From Chiloscyllium plagiosum (Eukaryota), in assembly GCF_004010195.1 (NCBI RefSeq), contig NC_057718.1, positions 39,713,773 to 39,733,772 of the forward strand: a stretch of DNA of 20,000 bases. Direction: 5' to 3'. Position numbers and translations under genes: made by a program. Every line of letters starts with the position of its first letter. The stretch's first letter is position 1. The notes beneath the pieces were generated by a model. That model was not told the DNA's origin and did not search any database. It was given only the letters and a program-made list of their open reading frames with translations. Shown one piece after another: positions 1-19,795 of the stretch.

Positions 1-579
1 GGAAGACCTTTTAGAATGGAGATAAGGAGAAATGTTGCAGTTGTAAAGGACTCTGGTGCGGCCGCATCTGGAATATTGTGTGCAGTTTTGGTCGCCATAC
101 TATAGGAAGGATGTGGTGGCACTGGAACGGGTGCAGAGGAGGTTTACCAGGATGTTGCCTGGTATGGTAGGAAGATCGTATGAGGAAAGGTTGAGGCACT
201 TGGGGTTGTTTTCATTGGAGAAAAGAAGGTTTGGGGTGACTTGATAGAGGTGTACAAGGTGATTAGGGGTTTAGATAGGGTTGACCATGAGAGCCTTTTT
301 CCACGTATGGAGTCAGCTATTACGAGGGGGCATAGCTTTAAATTAAGGGGTGGTAGGTATAGGACAGATGTTAGGGGTAGATTCTTTACTCAGCGAGTCG
401 TGAGTTCATGGAAAGCCCTGCCAGTAGCAGTGGTGGACTCTCCCTCTTTATGGGCATTTAAACGGGCATTGGATAGGCATATGGAGGATAGTGGGCTAGT
501 GTCGGTTAGGTGGGCTTGGATCGGTGCAACATCGAGGGCCAAAGGGCCTGTACTGTGTTGTATTTGTCTATGTTCTATG
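1..579 (+). mobile_element. CR1-clade LINE (HER1-like), 3' end of ORF2 and 3' UTR
   Basis: [35 protein letters not shown]...[10 protein letters not shown], then ...FFTQRVV..W; frameshifted; ends in gggccaaagggcctgtact...ctatgttctatg tail. Confidence 0.9.
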
Positions 580-2132
580 TACCCTTCCACCGACACTCTA
601 ATTCGTTTGGCTGAACTGGTCCTCACCCTCAATAATTTCTCCCTTGTATTCTCCCACTTCTTCCAGAGGAGAGGGGTAGCTATGGGCACCTGCATGGGCC
701 CCAGCTATGCCTGTCTCTTTGTCAGCTAGATGGAACAGTCTATCTTCTGTAGTTACACCAGCACCATTTCCTCCGTTACATTGATGACTGCATCACCACA
801 TGACTGCATCGTGCTCCCACGCGGAGGTTAAACAGTTCATCAACTTCACCAATACATTCCATCCTAACCTTAAATTCACCTGGACCATCTCAGATACCTC
901 CCTGCCCTTCCTGGACCTCTCCATCTCCATCAACAGTGACCGACTCAACACGGGCATCTTCTACAAACCCACTGACTCCCACAGATACCTGGATTACACC
1001 TCCTCCCATCCTGCCTCCTGTAAAAATGCTCTCTCTTATTCCCAATTCCTCCACCACCACCGCATCTGCTCCCAGGAGGACCAGTTTCACCACAGAACAC
1101 ACCAGGTGGCCCCCTTTTTTAAAGACTGCAATTTCCCCTCCAGTGCATCTCATTTCCTGCACCTCCGCCCTCAAACCCCACCCCTCCAGAATCTCCCAGT
1201 CCTCATTTCCACCCCACCAATCTCCGTATACCTCCCATCATCCTCTGTCATTTTCACCACCTACAAATGGACCCCACCACCAGAGATATATTGCCCTCTC
1301 CACCCCTATCCGCTTTCCGTAAAGACCATTCCCTTTGTGACTACTTCATCAGGTCTACGCCCCCCAACAACCCACCCTCTCCTCCCAGCACCTTCCTCTG
1401 CCACTGCAGGAATTGTAAACCCTGTGCCGACACCTCCCCCCTCATCTCTGTCCAAGGCCCAAAAGGTGCCTTCCACATCCATCAAAGTTTCACCTGAACT
1501 TCCACACGCCATTTATTATAACCGTTGCTCCCGATGCGGTCTCCTCTACATTGGGGAGACAGGACACCTACTCGCAAAGCACTTCAGAGAACAACTCCGG
1601 GACATCCGCAGCAATTAACCTCACCACTCCGTGGTCAAACTCCCCCTCCCACTCTGCCGAGGACATGCAGGTCCTGGGCCTCCTCCATCGCCACTCCTTC
1701 ACCACCCAACGCCTGGAGGAAGAACGCCTCATTTTCCGCCTTGGGACCCTCCAACCCCAGGGCATCAATGTGGATTTCACAAGTTTCCTCATTTCCTCTC
1801 TCCACACTTTTATCCCCAGTTCCAACCTTCCACCTCAGCACTGCCCTCATGACCTGTCCATCTTCCTTCCCACCTATCTGCTCCACCCTCCCTTTGACCT
1901 ATCACCTTCACCCACACCTTCATTCACCTACTGCACTCTCAGCTACTTCTTGCCAGCCCCAACCCCCTCCCATTTATCTCTCCACCCCCGAGGCTCCCAG
2001 TCTCATTCCTGATGAAGAGTTTTTGCCAAAACGTCGATTTTCTTGCTCCTCTGATGCTGCCTGACCAGCTGTGCTTTTCCAGCACCACACTCTCGACTCT
2101 AATCTCCAGCATCTGCAGTACTTACATTCGCC
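580..2132 (+). mobile_element. Penelope-like retroelement, 5'-truncated and degraded (RT C-terminal part, GIY-YIG endonuclease, terminal repeat)
   Basis: LVLTLNNF...GVAMGTCMGPSYACLFV; RYIDD at about 774-788; FHPNLKFT..LPFLDL..FYKPTDSHRYLDYTSSHP; IYYNRCSRCGLLYIGETG (GIY-YIG); LEEERLIFRLGTLQPQGIN; terminus ctgatgaag...ctccagcatctgcag. Multiple stops and frameshifts. Confidence 0.9.
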
Positions 2133-2197
2133 TAGCAATAGTAGGCAGGCTAAGTCTGGCTTACTCAGTAATTTACAGGCTAAACTTTATATTCCAG

Positions 2198-3030: not shown

Positions 3031-3811
3031 GAATGGTCTTGGTTCTCTAGTTGCACACAGGGAGACAGGCATTAACTGCAGTGGTAGAGCTATATTGCCA
3101 AAATAGGGCCACCTCTCAGAATTTACTTCTATTATTGGTTCCACCAGTTGATTTAAGACCTAACAATTTTGTCAATCAAAATGAATTTAAAAAATATATG
3201 ACCTGAATAGAACAAAACATACAACACCTCAAAACATTTACTGACTGCACGTACCAATGTAGCTTTTAGTCCTTTCTGTTCTGTCACTACCCTTCATAAC
3301 TCGGATGAAACAACTGGCAGTAGTGTTTCATGTTTAAAGTCAACTGCTTTACCTCATTCAGGACAGAGGTTACACACCCTCCCACTTGTCCTGCAGCAGT
3401 ATTAACAATCTTCTAAAAAATTGTCCAAATTCTCACAATGTAGTATTGTTTAAAATTCTTGTTTTTAATTAATTTCATCAGCACTGAAAACTTCGCTACC
3501 TTTTCTGCCAAATTTGTTTTGACAGTGCTACTTACCTTCTGAAATTCTTGATTAGCCCTTAAATGTCATTAGTAATATCTGTTGTGTTAATGTTTTTCTT
3601 CCATTATTTAGTACTTTTATGAATGGTACTTGCTGAATGTGGAATCAATTCATGGCTCAAGATTTCAGTTCCAAAACTCCAAAACCAAGACACAAATATA
3701 AGAAAATTGGTCTCACATGACCAGAAGAATAACTGAGCAGCATGCACTCAAAATTAAAAGTGATGATTTACAAATATTTCTTTGCTCATTGACACCTCCA
3801 AACCTACTACT

Positions 3812-3909
3812 ACCCAGGTATATCATAGCATATTACCACCAGGTATATCACAGCATATTACGATCCAGGTATATCACAATATATTACCACCCAGGTATAC
3901 CATAGTACA
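3812..3909. repeat. Minisatellite, ~26-bp unit x ~3.8
   Basis: acccaggtatatcatagcatattacc / accaggtatatcacagcatattacg / atccaggtatatcacaatatattacc / acccaggtataccatagtaca. Confidence 0.85.
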
Positions 3910-4155
3910 CCAAACAATAGATAAACACTAGCAATGGCAAAGAATCATATGGTTTGAGACTAAATAAAATGCTTTTTCCCTGATTCACTGAAAGTAGAAT
4001 TTTGGATCCACTGAAGACAGAAGTTTATGGTATAGGAAGTAGTTATTTCGCATGTTATGTCTATGGTTCGACTCAAAGTGGAGTTACTCAGTCCCATTCC
4101 CCTGGTAATGGCTGCCTCATAATTGTCTAGATTTTCTTCTTCAAATTTTTTTTTA

Positions 4156-6452: not shown

Positions 6453-7299
6453 ATGAAGACATCTAAGGGAAAGGGAGCAAAGGCAGCACAGCAGGCAGGG
6501 CACTCCCCTACTATGTCGGGCACACCCGCAGGCGTTACCTTGACAGCCATGGCTGCGCCCTTAAGTTCAGTGGAGCAACAGCATTTACTAACTGAGTTCG
6601 CCAAACTCCGTGAAACAAAATCGAGGGAGCGCTGGAACCAATTACTGCCATGTTGACAAAGCATGAACAAGAGATCCGGGCTTTGGAACAGCACGTAGAA
6701 GCAGTGGAACACAGGACCGTGGCCTCAGAGGCCGCGACAGAGAGCTCCGAGGGGCGGATCCGAACCTTGGAAGGCCGGGTTTGGGGCCTGCAGGAACAAG
6801 TAAACATCCTCAAAAATTGCGGTCGGAGAGAAAAAAAAAATCTACGGATCTTGGCCTTACTGGAGCATGAAGGAGGTGAAAACCTTGCTGATTTTCTCGA
6901 GAGGTGGCTTCCTGAGTTGCTGGGACTGGAAATCGAGTCGGGGGCCGGGTGAATGTGGAGCAGGCCCACCGGATCGCAATGCGCAGGTCCGGTCCAGTCC
7001 AGCGCCCCTGCCCAGTCCTAGTGTGACTCCAGCATTACAAAGAAAAGCATTTAATAATAGAAACAGCCAGAAGACTGGGAGGAGATCCAAGGCTTTGGCT
7101 TATGAAGGTTCAGAGATAATGTATTTTCATGACTTTTCTGGGGCCATAATTAAGAAAAAAAAAGACCTTTGATAATGTAAAGAAAAAAATTAAGAGATTT
7201 AAACATTCAACATTCTCTGGCAGTACTATGTTTCAATTATGGGGGAGCTTCGACTCAGTGGAAAAAGTAAAAGGATTTTTGAACTTGCTGAAAAGATAG
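6453..7299 (+). pseudogene. L1 ORF1 (coiled coil plus RRM/CTD), frameshifted
   Basis: HEQEIRALEQHVEAVEHR...IRTLEGRV...LKNCGRREKKNLRILAL.E.EGGENLADFLERWLPELLGL; later YEGSEIMYFHDFS. Typical of L1 ORF1p. Confidence 0.75.
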
Positions 7300-8943
7300 A
7301 CTTTGGGCGAGGGGGAAGGAGGAAAAGATGCGTGCGGACAATAGCATAATTTTTTAAAAATCTTCTCTGTCCTTGTTCTTTTGCCTTTTGGGTTCTCAGG
7401 CTTTATAGGCTTGGTATTGCTCTGGTGTAAAATCCGGTATGTTTTATATTATATTTGTTTGGTGATTATTATTTATTCTATTGTTCAGTTTTGCTGATGA
7501 GGAGTGGTTACTCCTTTGATGTAAAGATGTGTGGGGCTGAGATGTTGAGGGGGAGGGGTGGGGGTCCATTGTTAACTTGTCAGAGTCTAAATAATTTTTT
7601 TTTTCATTGCTTGGGCTTGGGGCATGGCCTTAACTGAAAGGTGCTTGGATGGTTGTGAGGTTGGGAGTGAATGCTCCCGATGGGCAAGGAGGAATAAAAA
7701 AAATCACTGGAGATTTGTGTATTTTGTATTAATTTGTTCAAGTTAGGAGTAGAGTTTTTTTTTTAATTTTAGTAGTTTTGGTAGGGTTTGTAGGAATAGT
7801 CTTTAGATTTGATCAAGTCTGTTTTTTCTTCACTCATCGCACATTGAATGGGCTTCTTCCTTTTGGAGGACTGCGGGTTGTAGTGTGCAGTCATGGCTAG
7901 TGATCTGTTCAGGTGATGCATGTGGAATATAAAGGGTAGCCATTCCCCCATTAAAAAGGAAAAGGTGCTCTCAAATCTTAGGAAGAAAAGGGTTGACATT
8001 GTGCTGTTGCAAGTGACACATTTGACTGATAGGGAATATTTGAAGTTGCAGCAGGGGGTACAATAGGGTGTTCTTTTCCTCCTTTAACTCCAAAAGCAGA
8101 GGAGTGGCCATATTGGTACGAAAGAACCTCCCATTTCAAGTGACAGATCAAATCAAGGATGAGTATGGACAGTTTGTCAGTCTCAAGGCAGTGAAGAGTA
8201 TGGCATCCTGAACGTTGACTGTCCCCCAGTGCAATTTTTAGCTGATGCAGTCTCTAAATTAGTGGCTCTTGGGGTGCGCCGTACGATTATAAGAGGAGAC
8301 TTTAATTGTCTCACGGACCCCTGGGGTAGACAGAATGCCAAGAGGGTTGTCGGATGCACCTCGGCAATCTAGACAATTACTGGAGTTGTGTGAGGAGTTG
8401 GGGCTAGTGAATGTGTGGAGGTGCCTCCACCCGAATGGGAGGGACTTTACCTTTTACTCCAACCTGCACAAGTTCCACACAAGAAATTGATATGTTCTTT
8501 GTTCCAGGTCGGTTTGTTTGGACTTGGTGTTGGCCTGCAGAATTGGGAGCATAACTACTTTGGACCATGAGGCAGTATATTTAGATATTAAGAGCAAAGG
8601 TAGTGGAGTAGGCATGCGGCACTGGCGCATGGATCCATTTCTGTGAATGATGGCAACTTTGTACAGAATATCACAAGGGAGTTCAAGGCTTAGAAACCTG
8701 GCTTAGCTGGTTAGGAAGAAAAGTGCTCCACAGTCCATTGTGTCTACCAGGGAGAGAACTGGCAATGTCACTCGTGAGCTGAGGAAGATCAATACCAGAT
8801 TCCAGGAGTTCTATGCAGAGTTATACCAATCGGAGTGCTTTGGGGATGGAGAATTGAGAATGGAATCCTTTTTTCAAAACTTGGACCTCCCCGGTTTAAA
8901 TGCAGATCAGGCCTCCCTTTTAAATGCACTCTGACAAGTACAG

Positions 8944-9272
8944 GGGCGACACGGTGGCACAGTGGTTAGCACTGTTGCCTCACAGCGCCAGAGACCCGGG
9001 TTCAATTCCTGCCTCAGGCGACTGGCTGTGTGGAGTTTGCACGTTCTCCCCATGTTTGCGTGGGTTTCCTCCGGGTGCTCCGGTTTCCTCCCACAGTCCA
9101 AAGATGTGCAGGTCAGATGAATTGGCCATGCTAATCTGCCCGTAGTGTTAGGTAAGGGGTAAATGTAGGGGTATGGGTGGGTTGCGCTTCGGCTGGTCGG
9201 TGTGGACTTGTTGGGCCAAAGGGCCTGTTTCCACACTGTAATGTAATGTAATCTAATCTAATCTAAAAAAAA
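8944..9272 (+). mobile_element. HE1-type (V-SINE superfamily) tRNA-derived SINE, full length, nested in L1 ORF2
   Basis: A box tggcacagtggttagc, B box gggttcaattcc, core ctgtgtggagtttgcacgttctccccatgtttgcgtgggtttcctccgggtgctccggtttcctcccacagtccaaaga, CR1-like 3' end gggccaaagggcctgtttcc, and (taatc)n tail. Confidence 0.92.
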
Positions 9273-11627
9273 GAAGGTACAAGAGAGGCGTTAAGGCAGC
9301 TTCAAGGTGGTAAGGCACCCGGTCCCGACGGGTTCCCGAGTGAATTTTACAAGAAGTTCATACACATGTTAGCTGACCCACTGCTGGAGATATTTAGTCA
9401 TTCGTATAACCAGGACTGCCTTCCACCCTTTATTAGTGAGGCTAATATCTCCCTTATCTTAAAGGAAGGGAAAGACCCTGAGGATTGTGCATCGTATAGG
9501 CCAATCTCATAGTTGAATGTGGGTTTTAAAATTGTATCAAGGTGTTGGCTCTGAGGTTGGAGAAAGTGCTGCCTGTTATTATAAAAGAGGACAAGAAGGG
9601 TTTCAGCAAGGCTGCAGTTCATTCAACAATATCAGACGGGTATTGAATACGGTACAAATATATCAGTCGGGAATGATTCTGTGTTTGGTGGTCTCCCTGA
9701 ATGCAGAAAAGGCTTTTGATAGGGTGGAATGGTCATATCTCTTTGCTGTTCTAGATAGTTTTGGTCTGGGAGGGGTCTTCGCCAGGTGGGTGGCAGTGTT
9801 ATATAAAGACCCCAAAACGGATGTTATCACAAATGGGGTTAAATCGAGCAATTTTGGTGTGGGGAGGGGCAGCCGACAGGGACGTCCCTTGTCACTGCTG
9901 TTGTTCACCTTGGTACTTGAACCACTGGCGGAGGCTATCCAAAAGGACCCTGAAATAATGGCACAAAGGTGAGAGTTGGGGAACACAAAATCATTCTCAA
10001 TGCAGATGATGTCCTTCTGTTTTTGGCTAACCTTAAAAAAGTCCATACTCCGGCTAATACAAAGAATTAAATTATTCAGCAGCTTTTCAGGATATAGGAT
10101 AAATTTCACAAAATCGAAAGTCATGCCCGTGGAGGAATTGGTGGAAGTACTGAAGCTGGAGGACAGAATGGAGTTTCCTTTTAGATGGTCACAGAAAGGG
10201 TTTCTCCGTCTGGGAACTTTTATTACCCCTTACTTCTGGCAGCTGTATGGAACTAACTTTGTGCAGTTGTTCGAGAGAACAAAACAGGACTTGCAGCGAT
10301 GGGAGGGACTACCCATATCATGGCTAGGCCGTATAGCCTTCATTAAAATGAATGTTCTTCCTTGGTTGTTATATCCTATGAGGATGCTCCCGTTGCTATT
10401 ACACAAACAGGTGCTGCAGATGTTTGCAAGATGGTTTGGATCATTTATTTGGTGCCGTAAGCACCCCTTGATTAAATTTCCCAAGTTGCAACTTCCACAG
10501 GATATTGGGGGGGGGGGGGGGGGGTTTGGCAGTAGACCTCTCAGATCTGAAAAATTACCAAATAGGCACCCAGTTGTCATATGTAGGCAAATGGGTGCAC
10601 GATGACTCGAAGTCAATATGGCTTAGTGTAGAGGCCTCACAGGCGAGATGTCCCCTCACAAACTTACTGTTCATGGATAAATTGAGATCTGTAGGGGAGT
10701 CAGATAATCAGAAACATAGTAAAAGCATGGAGGATAATGTGGCAGGGTGAGGGCAATTTGCTTAAGACTTCGCTGTCACCCCGTTAGTGGGAGCCCCAGG
10801 ATTAAGATTGGGGTCAATGGACTCTGGCTTTAGAGCATGGGAGGGTAAAGGAATCTCCTGTCTGGCAGATTTATTTGAGGGAGAGGTCTTGAAGTCTTTC
10901 AGCCAATTAGGTCAGAAATACGGAATCCCTAATAGGGACGTTTTCCAGTATTTCCAGGTTAGGGATTACATACAGAAGACGGCCACGCTGTTGGCCCAGC
11001 CCTACAAGTATATAGAACGAAGAGTGCTCTAAAGTGAGGACGCTCTCAGTTAGTACCATATATCTACTGCAGAGAGAGAATGCCTTGGGGGATATGGAGA
11101 GACTCCATGAGATTTGGAATCAGGAGTTAGGGGAAGAAATCTCATTGGAAACATGGGAGGACATATGGGGGAAATGTAAAGAAAATTTCACTATGCAATA
11201 AGGCACAAGCGATGCAATTGAAGATCCTCCACAGGGCCCATATGGCACCAGAGAGACTAGCAAAGTTTAAGAAAGGACCTTCCCCGAAATATCCCAAATG
11301 TAAAAACAGTATTGGCACCCTTACACATTGCTTTTGGTCCTGTTACAAGATTTACGGATACTGGGAGGGCCATAGTGAATGAACTGGAGATGATCCTGGG
11401 AATGGAAGTTAGAGAGGATCCAGTGTCCCTCATTTTGGAACTACTGAATCTTCCCTCTTTGGGTGAGCACAGGAAGAGGTTATTCAATATCCTTACACAC
11501 TGTGCGAGGAAGAACATCACAATGAATTGGATATCAGAAAAGCTTCCAGGGTCTTGCAGGATGGAGCATGTTCCCTCAAGATTACCTGACAAGTATGGTG
11601 TGCCACAGAATGGAGCAATTTTATAAG

Positions 11628-12197
11628 ACATAGAGTCATATAGATGTATAGCACGAAAACAGACCCTTCGGTGCAACCCGTCCATGCCGACCAGATATAC
11701 CAACCCAATCTAGTCCCACCTGGCCCATATCCCTCCAAACCCTTCCTAATCATATACCCATTCAGATGCCTTTTAAATGTTGCAATTGTACTATCCTCCA
11801 CCACTTCCTCTGGCAGCTCATTCCATACACATACCACCCTCTGTTGCCCCCTAGATCTCTTTTACATCTTTCTCTTCTCACCCTAAACCTATCTAGTTCT
11901 GGACCCAACCAGTGAAAAGACTTTGTCTGTTTATCCTATCCATGCCCTTCATGATTTTATAAACCTCTATAAGATCACCCCTCAGCCTCTGACACTCCAG
12001 GGAAAACAGCGCTAGCCTATTCAACCTCTCCCTATAGTTCAAATCCTCCAAACCTGGCAATATCCTTGCAAATCTTTTCTGAACCCTTCCAAGTTTCACA
12101 ACATCCTTCCGATAGGAAGATGAGCAGAATTGCACGCAATATTCCAAAAGTGGCCTAACCAATGTCCTGTACAGTTGCAATATGACCTCCCAACTCA
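11628..12197 (-). mobile_element. 5'-truncated CR1 LINE nested in the L1 ORF2 3' end
   Basis: SWEVILQLYRTLVRPLLEYCVQF...[17 protein letters not shown] and WNELPEEVVE..TIATFKRHL on the minus strand; tail ...atgactctatg. Confidence 0.9.
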
Positions 12198-12667: not shown

Positions 12668-12765
12668 CTGCTGTCTTTACCATTCTGCATGGCAGAGTAT
12701 CGATCACTGGTCGAGCGTTCACACACATAGGTGTTCCTCCTTGTCATACTAGGGAGCATGTTATT
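12668..12765 (-). CDS. MARK1: MARK1 next coding exon, 98 nt, phase 0 to phase 2 (not in ORF track)
   Basis: Reverse complement reads NNMLPSMTRRNTYVCERSTSDRYSAMQNGKDS+AG, matching recalled MARK1 NN...SMARRNTYVCERTTDRY...QNGKDSS. Acceptor tttCAG at 12771-12766, donor GTGAGA at 12667-12662. The frame joins the upstream exon correctly. Confidence 0.93.
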
Positions 12766-12925: not shown

Positions 12926-13075
12926 GGAGAAAGTGAGGACTGCAGACGCTGGAGATCAGAGTTGTGAGTACAGAGGAGCAGGAGAATCGATGTTTTGGGG
13001 ATAAACCCAAGGGGTTATTCTCCTGCTCCTCGGATGCTGCCTGACCAGCTGTGCTTTTCCAGCACGACTCTCTCC
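12926..13075. mobile_element. Penelope-terminus-derived fold-back element, internally deleted, with 13-bp TSD
   Basis: Inverted terminus ggagaaagtgaggactgcagacgctggagatc..., then forward ...tcctgctcctcggatgctgcctgaccagctgtgcttttccagcac. TSD acaggcaattata (12913-12925) / acagccaattata (13076-13088). Confidence 0.8.
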
Positions 13076-13404
13076 ACAGCCAATTATATACCATGGATTA
13101 AAGGTACAGCTTCACAGCCACAATTCGCCATGCCACTGATCACATGTCTGTCAATTCAGGTGATATCAGGGCCTTATTGCTGAAGTTACTTTTCCCAATA
13201 ACCATGCATTACATCAAAGATCAAATCTGTAAGAATACCATCATCATATTTAAGCTGTATGTAATAGCTCAGGAAGCCTGATTGGAACATAACAGAGTTT
13301 ATGTTGAACACTAAAACAAAGCCACTACTCATGGCATTGTTTAGCCCCAGCCTGGGACAGACAGCCCTGCACACCCATCCCTGGATCTGTTTGATAGTAT
13401 TTTT

Positions 13405-14920
13405 AATGATTCTGTTTATAGGCATGACAACATGTCTCTGGAGCAGGTGGGACTTGAACCCAGCTCTCCTTGCTCAGGAGGTAGGGACACAGCCATTGCA
13501 CCACAAGGCCCCTATCTGGTTCTGCTTTAGTATTTATTTCAATCAGCCTATTAAGAGATGTTGCTCTACACGTCTGGGGCAGTGGAACTTGAACACAAGC
13601 TTCCACAGCCCAGAGGGAGGGACATTATCACTAAACCACAAGGCCCCTAACTGGGCCAGTGTCATTCTTTTTAAATAGCAGAAAATGTATCATATAAAAT
13701 TGAACACCTTTCCCACCAACAAATTACCGTGACTAATTTTGTGTTATTTAAACTATTAACCACTGCCAGTAATCATCTATGAAGCCAATTAAATACATAC
13801 AATCAAAGCCATGGGCAATGCGAACTATCAAAAGTGAAGGGGAGATAGGGAGAGCAGGAAGGGGCGAAATCAAAATGGAGTTGGGGGGGAGATTATGCAC
13901 GAAAACCCTCGCAGTGCCCAGGTATCTAAAGACATTGAGAGCAGTGACAGACACGATGTCCTCCCTCTCCATGAACACCTGGGTACTAACATAAACACAG
14001 AAGGAGGGCTTGGGTCTATTTTATATTTCTTTTTCTGCACAGATGTGTTAGCACACATAACTGAGCGAACTACCCACCACCAAAATGCCTGAGACTTTTG
14101 TTTTCAAACTATTATCCACCACCAGTAAAAACACCCTTCTGGCCAGTTCAACATTTGCCAGTAAAGCCCATTATGGGCAATGCCAATTATTAAGGAGGGG
14201 GCAGTGGAGAATAAGGCAAGCAGGAAGGCGACTAAATAAAAACAGAGTTGGAGGAGGAAATAAAGCACTCTATCCTCCATAGTGCCCAGCTCTCTCTAAA
14301 GATTTTGAGAGCATTGATGGACACTACATCCTTGCTCTCCAAGGACACCCGGGAATTAACGTAACCACTGGGTCTGCTTTACCTTTTAAAAAATATTTTT
14401 TAATCAACCTGTTCAGAGATGTTATTACATACCTCTGCAACAGGTGGGACTTGAACACGGGCCTCCTGACTTAAAGACAGGGACACTACCACTGCACCAT
14501 AAAGCAAACCCAGCGGGGCTATTATAAGTATTTTTTAATTTAACCACTTTTTCTCATCAACCTGCTCAGATGTTATTACACTCCTGTGGAGCAGGTAGGG
14601 TGCTGGCTTACCAGTCCAGGGGTAGAGACACTACTACAGTGTGACAAAAGCCCCTCTGGGTCTGTTTTTATTTTTAAATCCTATTCAGAGATGTTATTGC
14701 ATACCTCTGGAGTAGGTGGTAACTGAACTCAGGCCTTCTAGTCCAGGGCAGGGGCACTACCATTGTGCTACAGGAGCCTCTCTAATTTTGAAATTTAAAA
14801 AAAAATTAACTTATTTTTCCTAAGCAACCTGTTTAGAGATCTTATTCCACACCTTTGAACATGGTCCTCCTGGTCAAGGAGCAGGACACTCCCACTGTGC
14901 CGCAACGGCCCCACTAGGTC
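13405..14920 (-). repeat. Array of six tRNA-like (A box/B box) ~110-bp units plus a duplicated ~220-bp segment
   Basis: Units at about 13405-13512, 13540-13647, 14401-14510, 14556-14660, 14677-14783 and 14821-14915. Minus-strand consensus resembles gggctcttgtggtgcagtggtagtgtccctacc...gggttcaagtcccacctgctccagaggt..aataacatctctgaacaggttga. Duplicated body at about 13808-14030 and 14166-14385. Confidence 0.75.
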
Positions 14921-16503: not shown

Positions 16504-16697
16504 ACTAGGTCCAGTGGTGGATTTTTTTCTGTCGAGACCCGCCAGTGGGCTTGCGGGCACATCTCCTTTGGAAGTTACAGTGGTGCTACTTAATTTTCGA
16601 ACCATGTCTTTGTCCCAGTCTTCCTTCTGTTCGTTTTCCACACTGTTTGCTTGGGCTCGCTTAGTGTACGAGACAGCAGGTGGTATTGATGGACCAG
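16504..16697 (-). CDS. MARK1: MARK1 internal coding exon (spacer region), 194 nt, phase 1 to phase 0
   Basis: Translates to (A)GPSIPPAVSYTKRAQANSVENEQKEDWDKDMVRKLSSTTVTSKGDVPASPLAGLDRKKSTTGPS. This matches the recalled vertebrate MARK1 segment AGPSIPPAVSYTKRPQANSVESEQKEEWDKD...SPLVGPERKKSST. Acceptor ttttatttctctgtcatgCAG (CAG = 16700-16698); donor GTAAGC at 16503-16498. Confidence 0.93.
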
Positions 16698-17319
16698 CTG
16701 CATGACAGAGAAATAAAAAGGACAAAATCAAACAAACTTACTTGACTCCAGTTGTGCAAAATTTCATGTCCTTTTCAGCTGAACATGTTATTCCTTTTCA
16801 GCTGAACCTATTTAAAGGTGCATCTAATTCACCATGGCCAGACACTTGACAGCATAATTATCAGAAGCATGCAGCAGTAGATAAAGATTACAAACCTAAC
16901 TTGATTTGATCTCTTCACATCACCTTGGATGCGAAAGGATGATTTAAAATAGATGATGGACAGATGAAAATACTACACTGTCACATTGTGATAAAAGCAT
17001 TAAACTCTTGATATCCTTATGAAGCTTACAACTAGTATAATTAACTAAAACTGTGCTCGTCAATTATCACTGTTGAACTTCTCTTTTTACAAAGCTACTC
17101 TCTCTGTTGTCAACGGACACTTTGTGCATGAGTCAGAGGTAACAGGCAAGAACAAAATATATTTCCATATATTAAAGCTGAATTCAATCATCTGACAAAA
17201 CTATTAAAAATATGTAGCAGGACAACAACCAACTGAGAAAGAAAGTTGCCACCCATGTAAATAGTGCGGTGAAGAAGGCATATGGCGTACTGGCTTTTAT
17301 TGGTAGAGGAATTGAGTTC

Positions 17320-17412
17320 NNNNNNNNNNNNNNNNNNNNNNNNNNNNNNNNNNNNNNNNNNNNNNNNNNNNNNNNNNNNNNNNNNNNNNNNNNNNNNNNN
17401 NNNNNNNNNNNN
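17320..17412. other. Assembly gap (93 N)
   Basis: Run of n. Confidence 1.
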
Positions 17413-17556
17413 TGTTTACTCAGCGAGTCGTGAGTTCATGGAATGCCCTGCCAGTAGCAGTGGTGGACTCTCCCTCTATATGGGCATTTAAACGGGCATT
17501 GGATAGGCATATGGAGGATAGTGGGCTAGTAGCAGTGGTGGACTCTCCCTCTTTAT

Positions 17557-17785
17557 GGATAAAGTGAAGTCTGCAGATGCTGGAGATCAGAGCTGAAAAC
17601 GTGTTGCTGGAACAGCGCAGCAGGTCAGGCAGCATCCAAGGAACAGGAGAATCGATGTTTTGGGCATAAGCCCTTCTTCAGGAATCAGATTCCTGAAGAA
17701 GGGCTTATGCCCGAAACGTCGATTCTCCTGTTCCTTGGATGCTGCCTGACCTGCTGTGCTGCTCCAGCAACACATTTTCAGCTCT
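17557..17785. mobile_element. Penelope-terminus-derived palindromic element (98-bp arms, 1-nt centre)
   Basis: 17589-17686 is the reverse complement of 17688-17785 with 5 mismatches. Flanked by ctctccctctttat (17543-17556) / ctctccttctttat (17782-17795). Confidence 0.9.
17687..17726 (+). ncRNA. Putative minimal type I hammerhead ribozyme motif (Penelope-associated)
   Basis: agattc-CUGAAGA-a-GGGC uuau GCCC-GAA-ACGU-C-gattct: conserved core, 4-bp stem II, palindromic ACGU in place of stem III, and stem I of 5/6 pairs. Confidence 0.65.
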
Positions 17786-18254
17786 CCTTCTTTATGGGCA
17801 TTTAAGCGGGCATTGGATAGGCATATGGAGGATAGTGGGCTAGTGTAGGTTAGGTGGGCTTGGATCGGCGCAACATCGAGGGCCAAAGGGCCTGTACTGC
17901 ACTGTATTCTTCTATGTTCTAAATTGCACACATGACACGAGCATTAACATATCTTTCTGAGGGATTGCTTCACGGATTTCCAAGAGTTGTCTCTCCACAT
18001 CTCCCCCCCCACCCCTCCCCCAACCCTATCTCATATTTTCAGGGTTTGATCTTTAAAACAAAAAGTCCTGGTACTCATTCAAGTAATATTAATTCTAATA
18101 TACTAGCTTCTGGGATTTAATTAGGGTGTTACTTCTCAAAATAAACTTTTCTTTTAAAAATCATGAAATTCATAAAAGATAATTAAAAACATCTTGGCGG
18201 AAATTAACGTGTTTCTTTTGTTGATTCAGTGACCGAAGATAAAATTCACAATTA

Positions 18255-19795
18255 GAATGAGGCAAATGTACTGAAGCCAAATTTGCAGATGACACAAAAA
18301 TAGATGGAAAGGCAAGTTGCGAGAGGGATACAAATAGTTCACAGAGAGACATTGATAGGTTAAGTAAATGGGCCAGAAGTTGGCAAATGCCGTATAATGT
18401 GGGAATATTGAATTTGTTCATTTTGGAAGGAAGAAGAGCATTACTGAAATAGAGAAAAATGGCAGAAAGCTGCAGCATAAACAGCATTTGTGCACAAAAC
18501 ACAGAAAGCTAGTACAGAGGGACCTCGATTATCCAAATCATCAAAGAGGTAAACGTACTGTATTTGATTTACCTAAACTGAAGAAGATGTGAAAATGCCG
18601 GCAAAAACAAAGAAACATAAGCACCTCAAGCAGCAGCAAATGGATATTTTTTAAGTAAGGGTTGTTATACAGCTCTTTGCAAGAGTAAGTGTTTTACAGT
18701 ACAGGTACAGTATTCCCGGCACGTTACCGGGCCGTTCATTTAAAACAAAAGGACAAGAACATAAGCACATGCATGAGGTGGGGCTTCTATCTTTCTACCG
18801 CGAGACTGAGTTCCCGGAAAGTGATACTGTAAATGTCTTGAAATCGTAGAAGCTGTTCGGGAACTTGTTTAATGCTGGGATTTCATGGTAAGGGTTTAGT
18901 TCTTCTCATTTTAACCTGTAATTCACAGACTGCAAAGATTGGTTTGTTTAAATGACAAACTCATTCAAGTGATAGATTTAAACAAATTCTCCGGTAGAGC
19001 ACAGCATTAGATCAGTATGGCTTCCTCGTTATAGCTAAAATCGATTATCCGAATAATCGATTATCCGAATGAAATAGTGCCTGCCCATCTCGTTCGGATA
19101 ATCGAGGTTCCTCTGTATAGCACTCAGGTGCAGCAGAAATCAGAAAGGCTCATGCAATGTTGGGCCTTAATTCAAAGAGTATGGAGTATAAGAGAAGGAA
19201 GTCTTATTGCAACTGTACAAGAGCAGTTGAACAAGTGTACTGAGAGCAATTTTGATCCCCTTAGTAAAGGAAAGATATCATTTTTTATCAGAGGCATTTC
19301 CATGAAGGCACACTTGGACCTTTTTTAAAAAGTCCTGGTATGGAAGGATTGTCTTATGAGCAAAGGTTAAAAAGGTTGGGACAATTCTCATTTGCATTTA
19401 GAAAAATGAAGTGAAATGATCTCATTGAAAACATATAGGACTCTTAAGGGGTTTGACAGGGTAAATGCTGATACGATGTTTCCTCCCATGGAAGAGTCTA
19501 GGACCTGAAGGCGTAGTCTCAGAACAAAAGAGCTCCATTTTTAAGATGGAGATGAGGAGGACTTTCTTCTCTCACAGGGTTGAGAATCTTTAGAACTGCT
19601 TGCCACAGAGAACTGTGCAGGCAGAGTCCTTGTGTACATCTAAGGCTGAGATAGATTCTTGATCATTATGGGAATAAAGAGTTAAAAAGAAAGGGCAGAA
19701 AATGGATGTGAGGATTATCAAATCAGCCATGATCCTATTGAACAGCAGAGCAGGTTCAAGGATCCGAATGGTCTACTCCTGTTCCTATTTCTTAG
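18255..19795 (+). mobile_element. Old CR1 LINE (RT FADD to 3' end), interrupted by a MITE
   Basis: KFADDTKIDGKASCERDTNSSQRDIDRLSKWARSWQMPYNV; gatctcattgaaaacatatagg; 3' UTR ...gaatggtctactcctgttcctatttctt. Confidence 0.8.
18515..19115. mobile_element. Tc1/mariner superfamily (Tigger/pogo-type) non-autonomous DNA transposon, 601 bp
   Basis: TIRs cagagggacctcgattatccaaa (18515-18537) and ttcggataatcgaggttcctctg (19093-19115) match at 21/23; TA on both sides (18513-14, 19116-17); no transposase ORF. Confidence 0.88.

Follow-up and report, generated by a model that had tools for sequence, protein, structure and literature searches.

The locus and its inverted insertion

The stretch analysed here, which we call the window, comprises 20,000 nt of Chiloscyllium plagiosum DNA, and two coding exons of MARK1 lie on its minus strand. 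Shark MARK1 proteins agree at up to 94% with the minus-strand translation of 16507-16695, and no earlier MARK1 exon was found by tblastn to the right of 16698 within the window. Since the exon for residues 426-490 lies to the left of the insertion described below, on the minus strand, and no earlier exon lies to its right, the insertion can be placed in a MARK1 intron; the initial annotation had proposed this location, and the minus-strand exons at 16698-16504 and 12765-12670 bear it out. The features on which the description rests are as follows.

12670..12765, minus strand: next MARK1 exon, residues 491-522 (tblastn, 91% identity)
16504..16698, minus strand: MARK1 coding exon, residues 426-490 of protein P0002 (tblastn, 94% identity), the nearest exon downstream in transcript direction
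17413..17921, plus strand: host repeat around the insertion, a LINE 3' end (matches to repeats D1, 98%, and D2, 94%)
17543..17558, plus strand: left copy of the target-site duplication, 16 nt, by sequence comparison
17560..17588, minus strand: tail of about 30 nt, present on the left arm only; its outer limit is 17557-17560, microhomology leaving ambiguity
17589..17686, minus strand: left arm, an inverted copy with its hammerhead running from 17681 to 17654 (G12>A at 17661, G16.2>A at 17656)
17688..17785, plus strand: right arm, the 5'-truncated 3' end of a Penelope-like element (PLE), without tail, by inverted-repeat search and family comparison
17782..17797, plus strand: right copy of the target-site duplication (a loose end of the empty site falls at 17782, with agreement 0.93)

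The element had been described as palindromic, and it is: its inverted arms, 17589-17686 and 17688-17785, are 98 nt long, 95% complementary and separated by a single nucleotide. The layout is that of an EN+ PLE insertion unit, with an inverted 5'-truncated copy, a one-sided tail and a short target duplication, the two copies of which are alike at 15 of 16 positions (10-16 nt in length, allowing for microhomology). An uninterrupted sister of the host LINE end, which we take to be CR1, is located at 385-577 (94-98%), with the empty site at about 438-453. Behind 17785 the family sequence continues, as seen in loose ends of reads. The host LINE end also contains a 75-nt tandem duplication within 17450-17558, and the PLE stub sits in its second unit; within this LINE fragment there is also a run of 93 N (17320-17412), some 150 nt to the left of the stub.

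Two other PLE insertions were recognised in the window.

577..2134, plus strand: longer, decayed copy from the same PLE family, with a broken RT, a C-x4-C-xx-C linker, a GIY-YIG piece and the 3' end
12930..13064, strand not assigned: second, more decayed head-to-head PLE stub, with a plus arm that starts where the family sequence corresponds to 17722

Over 120 nt, the left arm of the MARK1 stub shares 82% of its letters with the 3' end of the longer element (2005-2123), where a degenerate hammerhead occupies about 2003-2040 (CUGAUGA, broken stem II, G12>A). None of five window fragments reached the cut-off for a Pfam family. Among shark proteins similar to the longer element the match reaches 83% (for P0121, named after Chiloscyllium punctatum), and of the element's five protein matches the four that were scanned include three with RVT_1 above cut-off; P0125 shows GIY-YIG above cut-off as well as RVT_1, and in P0124 GIY-YIG stays below it. 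We identify the long copy as a PLE because its intact protein relatives carry RVT_1 and GIY-YIG. The C-x4-C-xx-C linker appears both in the window frame 1123-1497 and in P0125; a CX2-5CxxC linker between RT and GIY-YIG is a Neptune/Nematis trait, which the long copy of the shark family shares by its sequence, unlike Penelope/Poseidon, which are without such a linker. This longer PLE lies directly behind the sister LINE end 385-577, and both PLE insertions touch the end of the same LINE subfamily. The second stub has a deletion in one arm, a small fold-back at its junction and no hammerhead core left.

The window is otherwise rich in repeats. A long decayed LINE-like element on the plus strand (about 6480-11640), presumably L1/Tx1-like by eye, is interrupted at about 8940-9265 by a repeat that we assume to be tRNA-derived and SINE-like. 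A 25-nt inverted repeat, 92% identical, with copies at 18513-18537 and 19093-19117 (555 nt apart), may mark the two termini of a small DNA transposon. At 13400-14870 a short repeat (families D4-D6) recurs in at least five diverged copies, spaced 120-270 nt apart within the cluster, and a short tandem array of four copies of a 25-26 nt unit is found at 3795-3917.

The hammerhead motif and its relatives

The right arm begins with a hammerhead motif, all parts of which lie on the plus strand. Each letter and coordinate given for it initially (core, extra A, stem II, GAA, ACGT, C17720 and flanks) agrees with the sequence.

17687-17692: flank AGATTC
17693..17699: core C3-U4-G5-A6-N7-G8-A9 (CUGAAGA; CTGAAGA in DNA), by sequence and descriptor match
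17700: additional A following A9, ahead of stem II, listed as a PLE trait in PMC4209133
17701..17712: stem II, GGGC-TTAT-GCCC, 4 bp with a UUAU loop and G10.1-C11.1 (G17701-C17712) at its base
17713-17715: GAA, that is G12-A13-A14
17716-17719: palindromic ACGU (ACGT in DNA), able to form stem III only between two molecules
17720: C17, after which the cut is predicted, the site being deduced from the hammerhead consensus
17721-17726: flank GATTCT
17689..17724: stem I of the family, 17689-92 with 17721-24, three pairs and one U.U

The right arm matches the CUGANGA...GAAA...UH core and the left arm departs from it by G12>A. A descriptor that requires stems I and II together with a self-complementary stem III gave one match over both strands of the window and none in 1000 dinucleotide shuffles; the loose core pattern with no demand for pairing occurred in 35 of 200 shuffles and is thus weak. 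Rfam covariance models reported no hammerhead family at this site, either at E up to 10 or at gathering score, and the Rfam matches obtained were sub-threshold microRNA models and others, mostly an effect of the long palindrome. The recommended check with hammerhead models came out positive for the structured descriptor and negative for Rfam. A scan of the stretch for sigma-70 promoters, a bacterial model of no relevance to a eukaryotic host, gave no match.

The flanks had been said to pair at five of six positions, and in this copy they do, with a U.U mismatch at 17690/17723. The outer two of these pairs rest on A17687 and G17688, which are letters of the junction, and they are absent in the family: family copies have ..CCTC before 17689, as seen in loose read ends and in the older copy in the window, so that the family stem I is C-G, U-A, U.U, A-U.

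Minimal hammerheads of PLEs were characterised by an extra base after A9, the pair G10.1-C11.1 and palindromic positions 15.2-16.2, and monomers gave no cleavage and dimers cut weakly (PMC4209133). Our motif possesses the extra nucleotide A9/10.1, G10.1-C11.1, the palindromic 15.2-16.2, no stem III loop and a short stem I, and it resembles the published ones in the core, the A9 extra nucleotide, the missing stem III loop and the short stem I. The descriptor match, together with the 82% identity to a PLE 3' end, upholds its assignment to the minimal type I hammerheads of Penelope-like repeats. A stem III that works between two molecules also fits, the ACGT being present here and the need for a dimer being taken from the literature. 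The same work reports solo truncated copies and opposite-strand pairs, as in the shark stub, but those pairs are 100-700 bp apart, whereas the two cores of the stub, with a stem II of 4 bp, are separated by 11 nt (PMC4209133). Supplement files of that paper other than file 1 make no mention of shark or Callorhinchus. A search of papers, with subscription journals and repeat libraries outside its scope, found none on shark PLE hammerheads, and a prior description is possible.

Other known systems are close in part. Non-LTR retrozymes (Li 2026, 10.64898/2026.07.22.740005) are likewise noncoding, hammerhead-bearing and PLE-derived, and one was reported from a chondrichthyan; they are head-to-tail tandem units, whereas the shark element is a single head-to-head stub. 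Retrozyme identity was rejected on account of the head-to-head arms and no direct repeat of the core nearby. The amniote intronic hammerheads of RECK, CTCL and DTNB (PMC6155905) are of type I and lie in an intron, as here, and are conserved across lineages, whereas the shark motif is antisense, minimal and seemingly lineage-specific.

Distant relatives were sought in metagenome contigs. The shark-specific hammerhead pattern was found in 0 stretches, and a looser core pattern gave 120 loci, whose likeness to the window is confined to the core; a PLE endonuclease piece was present in 5 of the 120, with 300-500 nt of flank examined. Pairing was counted on the 95 distinct matches of 122, ignoring kinship, with the core and three pairs fixed or half-fixed by the pattern. 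In stem I, Watson-Crick pairing at the positions left free (pairs 2-5) was seen in 82, 60, 42 and 42 matches, where shuffles gave 31, 30, 26 and 26; for pairs 3-4 of stem II the counts were 82 and 68, with 50 and 30 in the shuffles. Pairs lying further out stayed at chance. Among the 37 loci with a 12-nt stem II, taken together with the window, 81% of cells were paired compared with 64% in shuffles (0/500) and 17-45% with slid partners, and in the same test two count measures were not above shuffles. This pairing supports the fold of the motif class and not the activity of the MARK1 copy. An inverted copy stands upstream in 11 of the 120 loci (L021, L044, L053, L094, L097, L105 and L112, seven distinct insertions, with L039, L118, L089 and L111 as duplicates), the centres lying from +3 to -33 from C3, so that back-to-back hammerheads appear to be common.

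Fate of the core beside MARK1

Because MARK1 runs on the minus strand, the intact core lies in antisense orientation to it. What the MARK1 pre-mRNA contains instead is the copy in the left arm, changed by G12>A and G16.2>A, and the literature proposes G12 as the general base of the hammerhead. Four of the five differences among the 98 positions of the arms are CpG transitions, two in each arm. Every arm has five CpG sites, three of them inside the ribozyme. In the left arm two of these three are gone, and in the right arm the two sites outside it. With four CpG changes falling among ten sites, the chance of sparing the right core is 0.17 and of sparing either core 0.33, and hence no selection on the right copy is needed to account for it. 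The right core is probably intact since CpG decay has not yet struck it, although the loss of G12 on the gene-sense copy would also be expected from selection against an intronic cutter. Both arms have G at 17761, a position at which 84-98% of the family read depth has T, and this is consistent with a single template or a single subfamily.

According to folding predictions the whole element forms a single hairpin on either strand, at -197 (plus) and -191 (minus) kcal/mol with z of about -25, and on the plus strand the complementary arm is transcribed before the core. In the whole element the predicted probability of stem II on the plus strand is 2.7e-15, and freeing the core from the hairpin is predicted to take 58 kcal/mol. 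The intact core is thus predicted to be buried in the hairpin in place and not to cut there. The probability of stem II depends on where the RNA starts, from 1e-12 for a start at 17660 to 0.99 at 17675, and the right arm alone reaches 0.31-1.0, depending on its limits; a plus-strand RNA starting after about 17670 would, on these models, escape the hairpin. With core tertiary energy left out of the model, the excised 40-mer scores -18.3 kcal/mol as a hammerhead dimer, compared with -19.4 for a pair of monomers and -24.1 for the best dimer; as a dimer in vitro it may still cleave. The earlier proposal that this copy could self-cleave is not supported for this site, the core being antisense to MARK1, the sense copy lacking G12 and stem II having the probability given above.

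Reads were compared with the reference 17676-18275 in three DNA runs and one RNA run. The family is very abundant, with 71,307, 47,999 and 57,468 matching records in the three DNA runs, and among the variants listed, those inside the motif affect the loop of stem II, position N7 (in X1 at 15% of depth) and C11.1, which belongs to a CpG. The RNA run X21 yielded 2,748 matching reads from about 2% of the run, 30 of the 2,748 being 99% alike, and on the PLE repeat they run in both directions. No RNA read fell on the unique flank 17936-18275 in this approximately 2% of one poly-A single-cell run, a weak test, and no pile-up of RNA ends was seen at any place on the reference, in a library poorly suited to such ends. 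In a related species (organism B, run X15) a 1367-nt contig matches 17921-18275 with 14 other letters and 10 gaps and then, by reading of the record coordinates, runs for 967 letters not fitting the host repeat; the insertion seems to be absent from organism B and lineage-specific, judging by one contig with its upstream part unaligned left of 17320. No contig spanning the whole insertion was among those listed for organism A.

Taken together, we consider it very likely that the locus holds a minimal type I hammerhead of a Penelope-like terminal repeat, within a short head-to-head insertion which faces away from MARK1, and that it is inert there. That the ribozyme is active would mean that an antisense RNA starts from the centre of the palindrome, forms an ACGU dimer with another family transcript and is cut after 17720. 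The intact core letters, the stem II that the right arm can form alone, the family RNA in both directions in X21 and the weak cutting of published dimers in vitro (PMC4209133) speak in favour of it, but no flank read or end pile-up appeared in the RNA sample, the 40-mer prefers both its monomers and another dimer to the hammerhead dimer when tertiary energy is left aside, and the Anolis PLE ribozyme required its protein (PMC11167929); we regard this as quite improbable. Domestication as an intronic hammerhead which regulates processing of MARK1 RNA, in the manner of RECK and CTCL, can draw on the intronic site and on published cases of such domestication (PMC6155905), yet it appears extremely improbable given that the intact copy is antisense, the sense copy is without G12, there is no canonical stem III and organism B seemingly has no insertion.

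It could also be that the hairpin matters rather than the ribozyme, the 98-bp stem in the MARK1 pre-mRNA being a substrate for editing or small RNAs. The minus strand does fold at -191 kcal/mol (z -24), but any inverted insertion yields such a fold, the matches to microRNA families are far below gathering score and the RNA sample contained no locus-specific RNA; as the main explanation it is highly improbable, and as a side effect it is compatible with an inert relic. An assembly artefact might be suspected from the neighbouring N run (17320-17412) and from the fact that no spanning contig was among those listed. However, the arms differ at five places, four of them of CpG type, a target duplication and a one-sided tail are present, and like junctions occur in other family copies, which leaves this reading hardly credible.

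Insertion, inversion junctions and the family

The inert relic may be traced to a plausible course of insertion. A staggered cut by the RT/endonuclease would have been made inside the older LINE end, the duplication being observed, and then only the last 100-130 nt of the element RNA would have been copied, in agreement with the observed layout. As both arms extend across the cut site, the template was not cut at this hammerhead. Copying from two initiation sites might have produced the one-sided tail, by analogy with Anolis PAc (PMC11167929), and the inverted arm would have arisen in the course of integration, either by fold-back or with both DNA ends acting as primers. In the mobile family, according to the literature, the motif would dimerise through ACGU/ACGU pairing and exchanged stem I strands and be cut after GUC, and this cutting is probably slow or protein-aided. 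At the MARK1 locus, plus-strand read-through is predicted to zip into the 98-bp hairpin during synthesis.

Published PLE insertions have an inverted 5'-truncated copy, a one-sided tail of 30-40 nt, head-to-head palindromes and duplications of 8-10 bp (PMC8557442, PMC3846280). The pLTR insertions of Arkhipova 2013 (PMC3846280) and Craig 2021 (PMC8557442) resemble ours in the inverted truncated copy, the palindrome at the junction and the tail of about 30 nt, whereas the shark insertion consists of two stubs only, with no ORF between them and with a symmetric junction around a 1-nt centre. In the Poseidon element PAc of Anolis both DNA strands are cut and extended, and two initiation sites give the tail (Frangieh 2024, PMC11167929); its ribozyme needs protein to cut, uncut RNA is the main template and no RNA-seq ends were found at the ribozyme cut. 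PAc is like the shark family in the pLTR hammerhead, the uncut RNA template and the two initiation sites explaining the tail (PMC11167929).

Family copies in the reads add a lead of another kind. Among the best-supported junctions listed, at least 12 distinct types link a point in 17688-17698 with one lying to its right; in the 12 types listed the left side is at 17688-17690 in 10 and the right side at 17720-17723 in 5. These junctions were chosen by support, the kind of joint is given for part of them and the reference starts at 17676; they may share ancestors or descend from one master copy. The predicted 5' end of the cut RNA is 17721, and the plus arm of the second stub in the window starts at the match of 17722. 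It would be tempting, though rather doubtful, to read the inversion junctions of the shark family as a fossil record of ribozyme cutting in the germ line, left by RT running off RNA cut after C17. We also considered A17689 as a conserved initiator with G17688 as a copied cap, which found no support in the distant loci: 78 distinct ones showed no positional peak of initiator-like words before the core.

The single locus itself matters little, being a described motif in a described layout, one of very many copies and antisense to its host gene. If the reading of the junctions were true, it would offer a purely computational test of PLE hammerhead cutting in vivo, given the very many copies per genome. 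The use of the locus is to draw attention to a very abundant family of shark PLEs, where counting tests can be applied to cutting in vivo and to the origin of the inverted arm.
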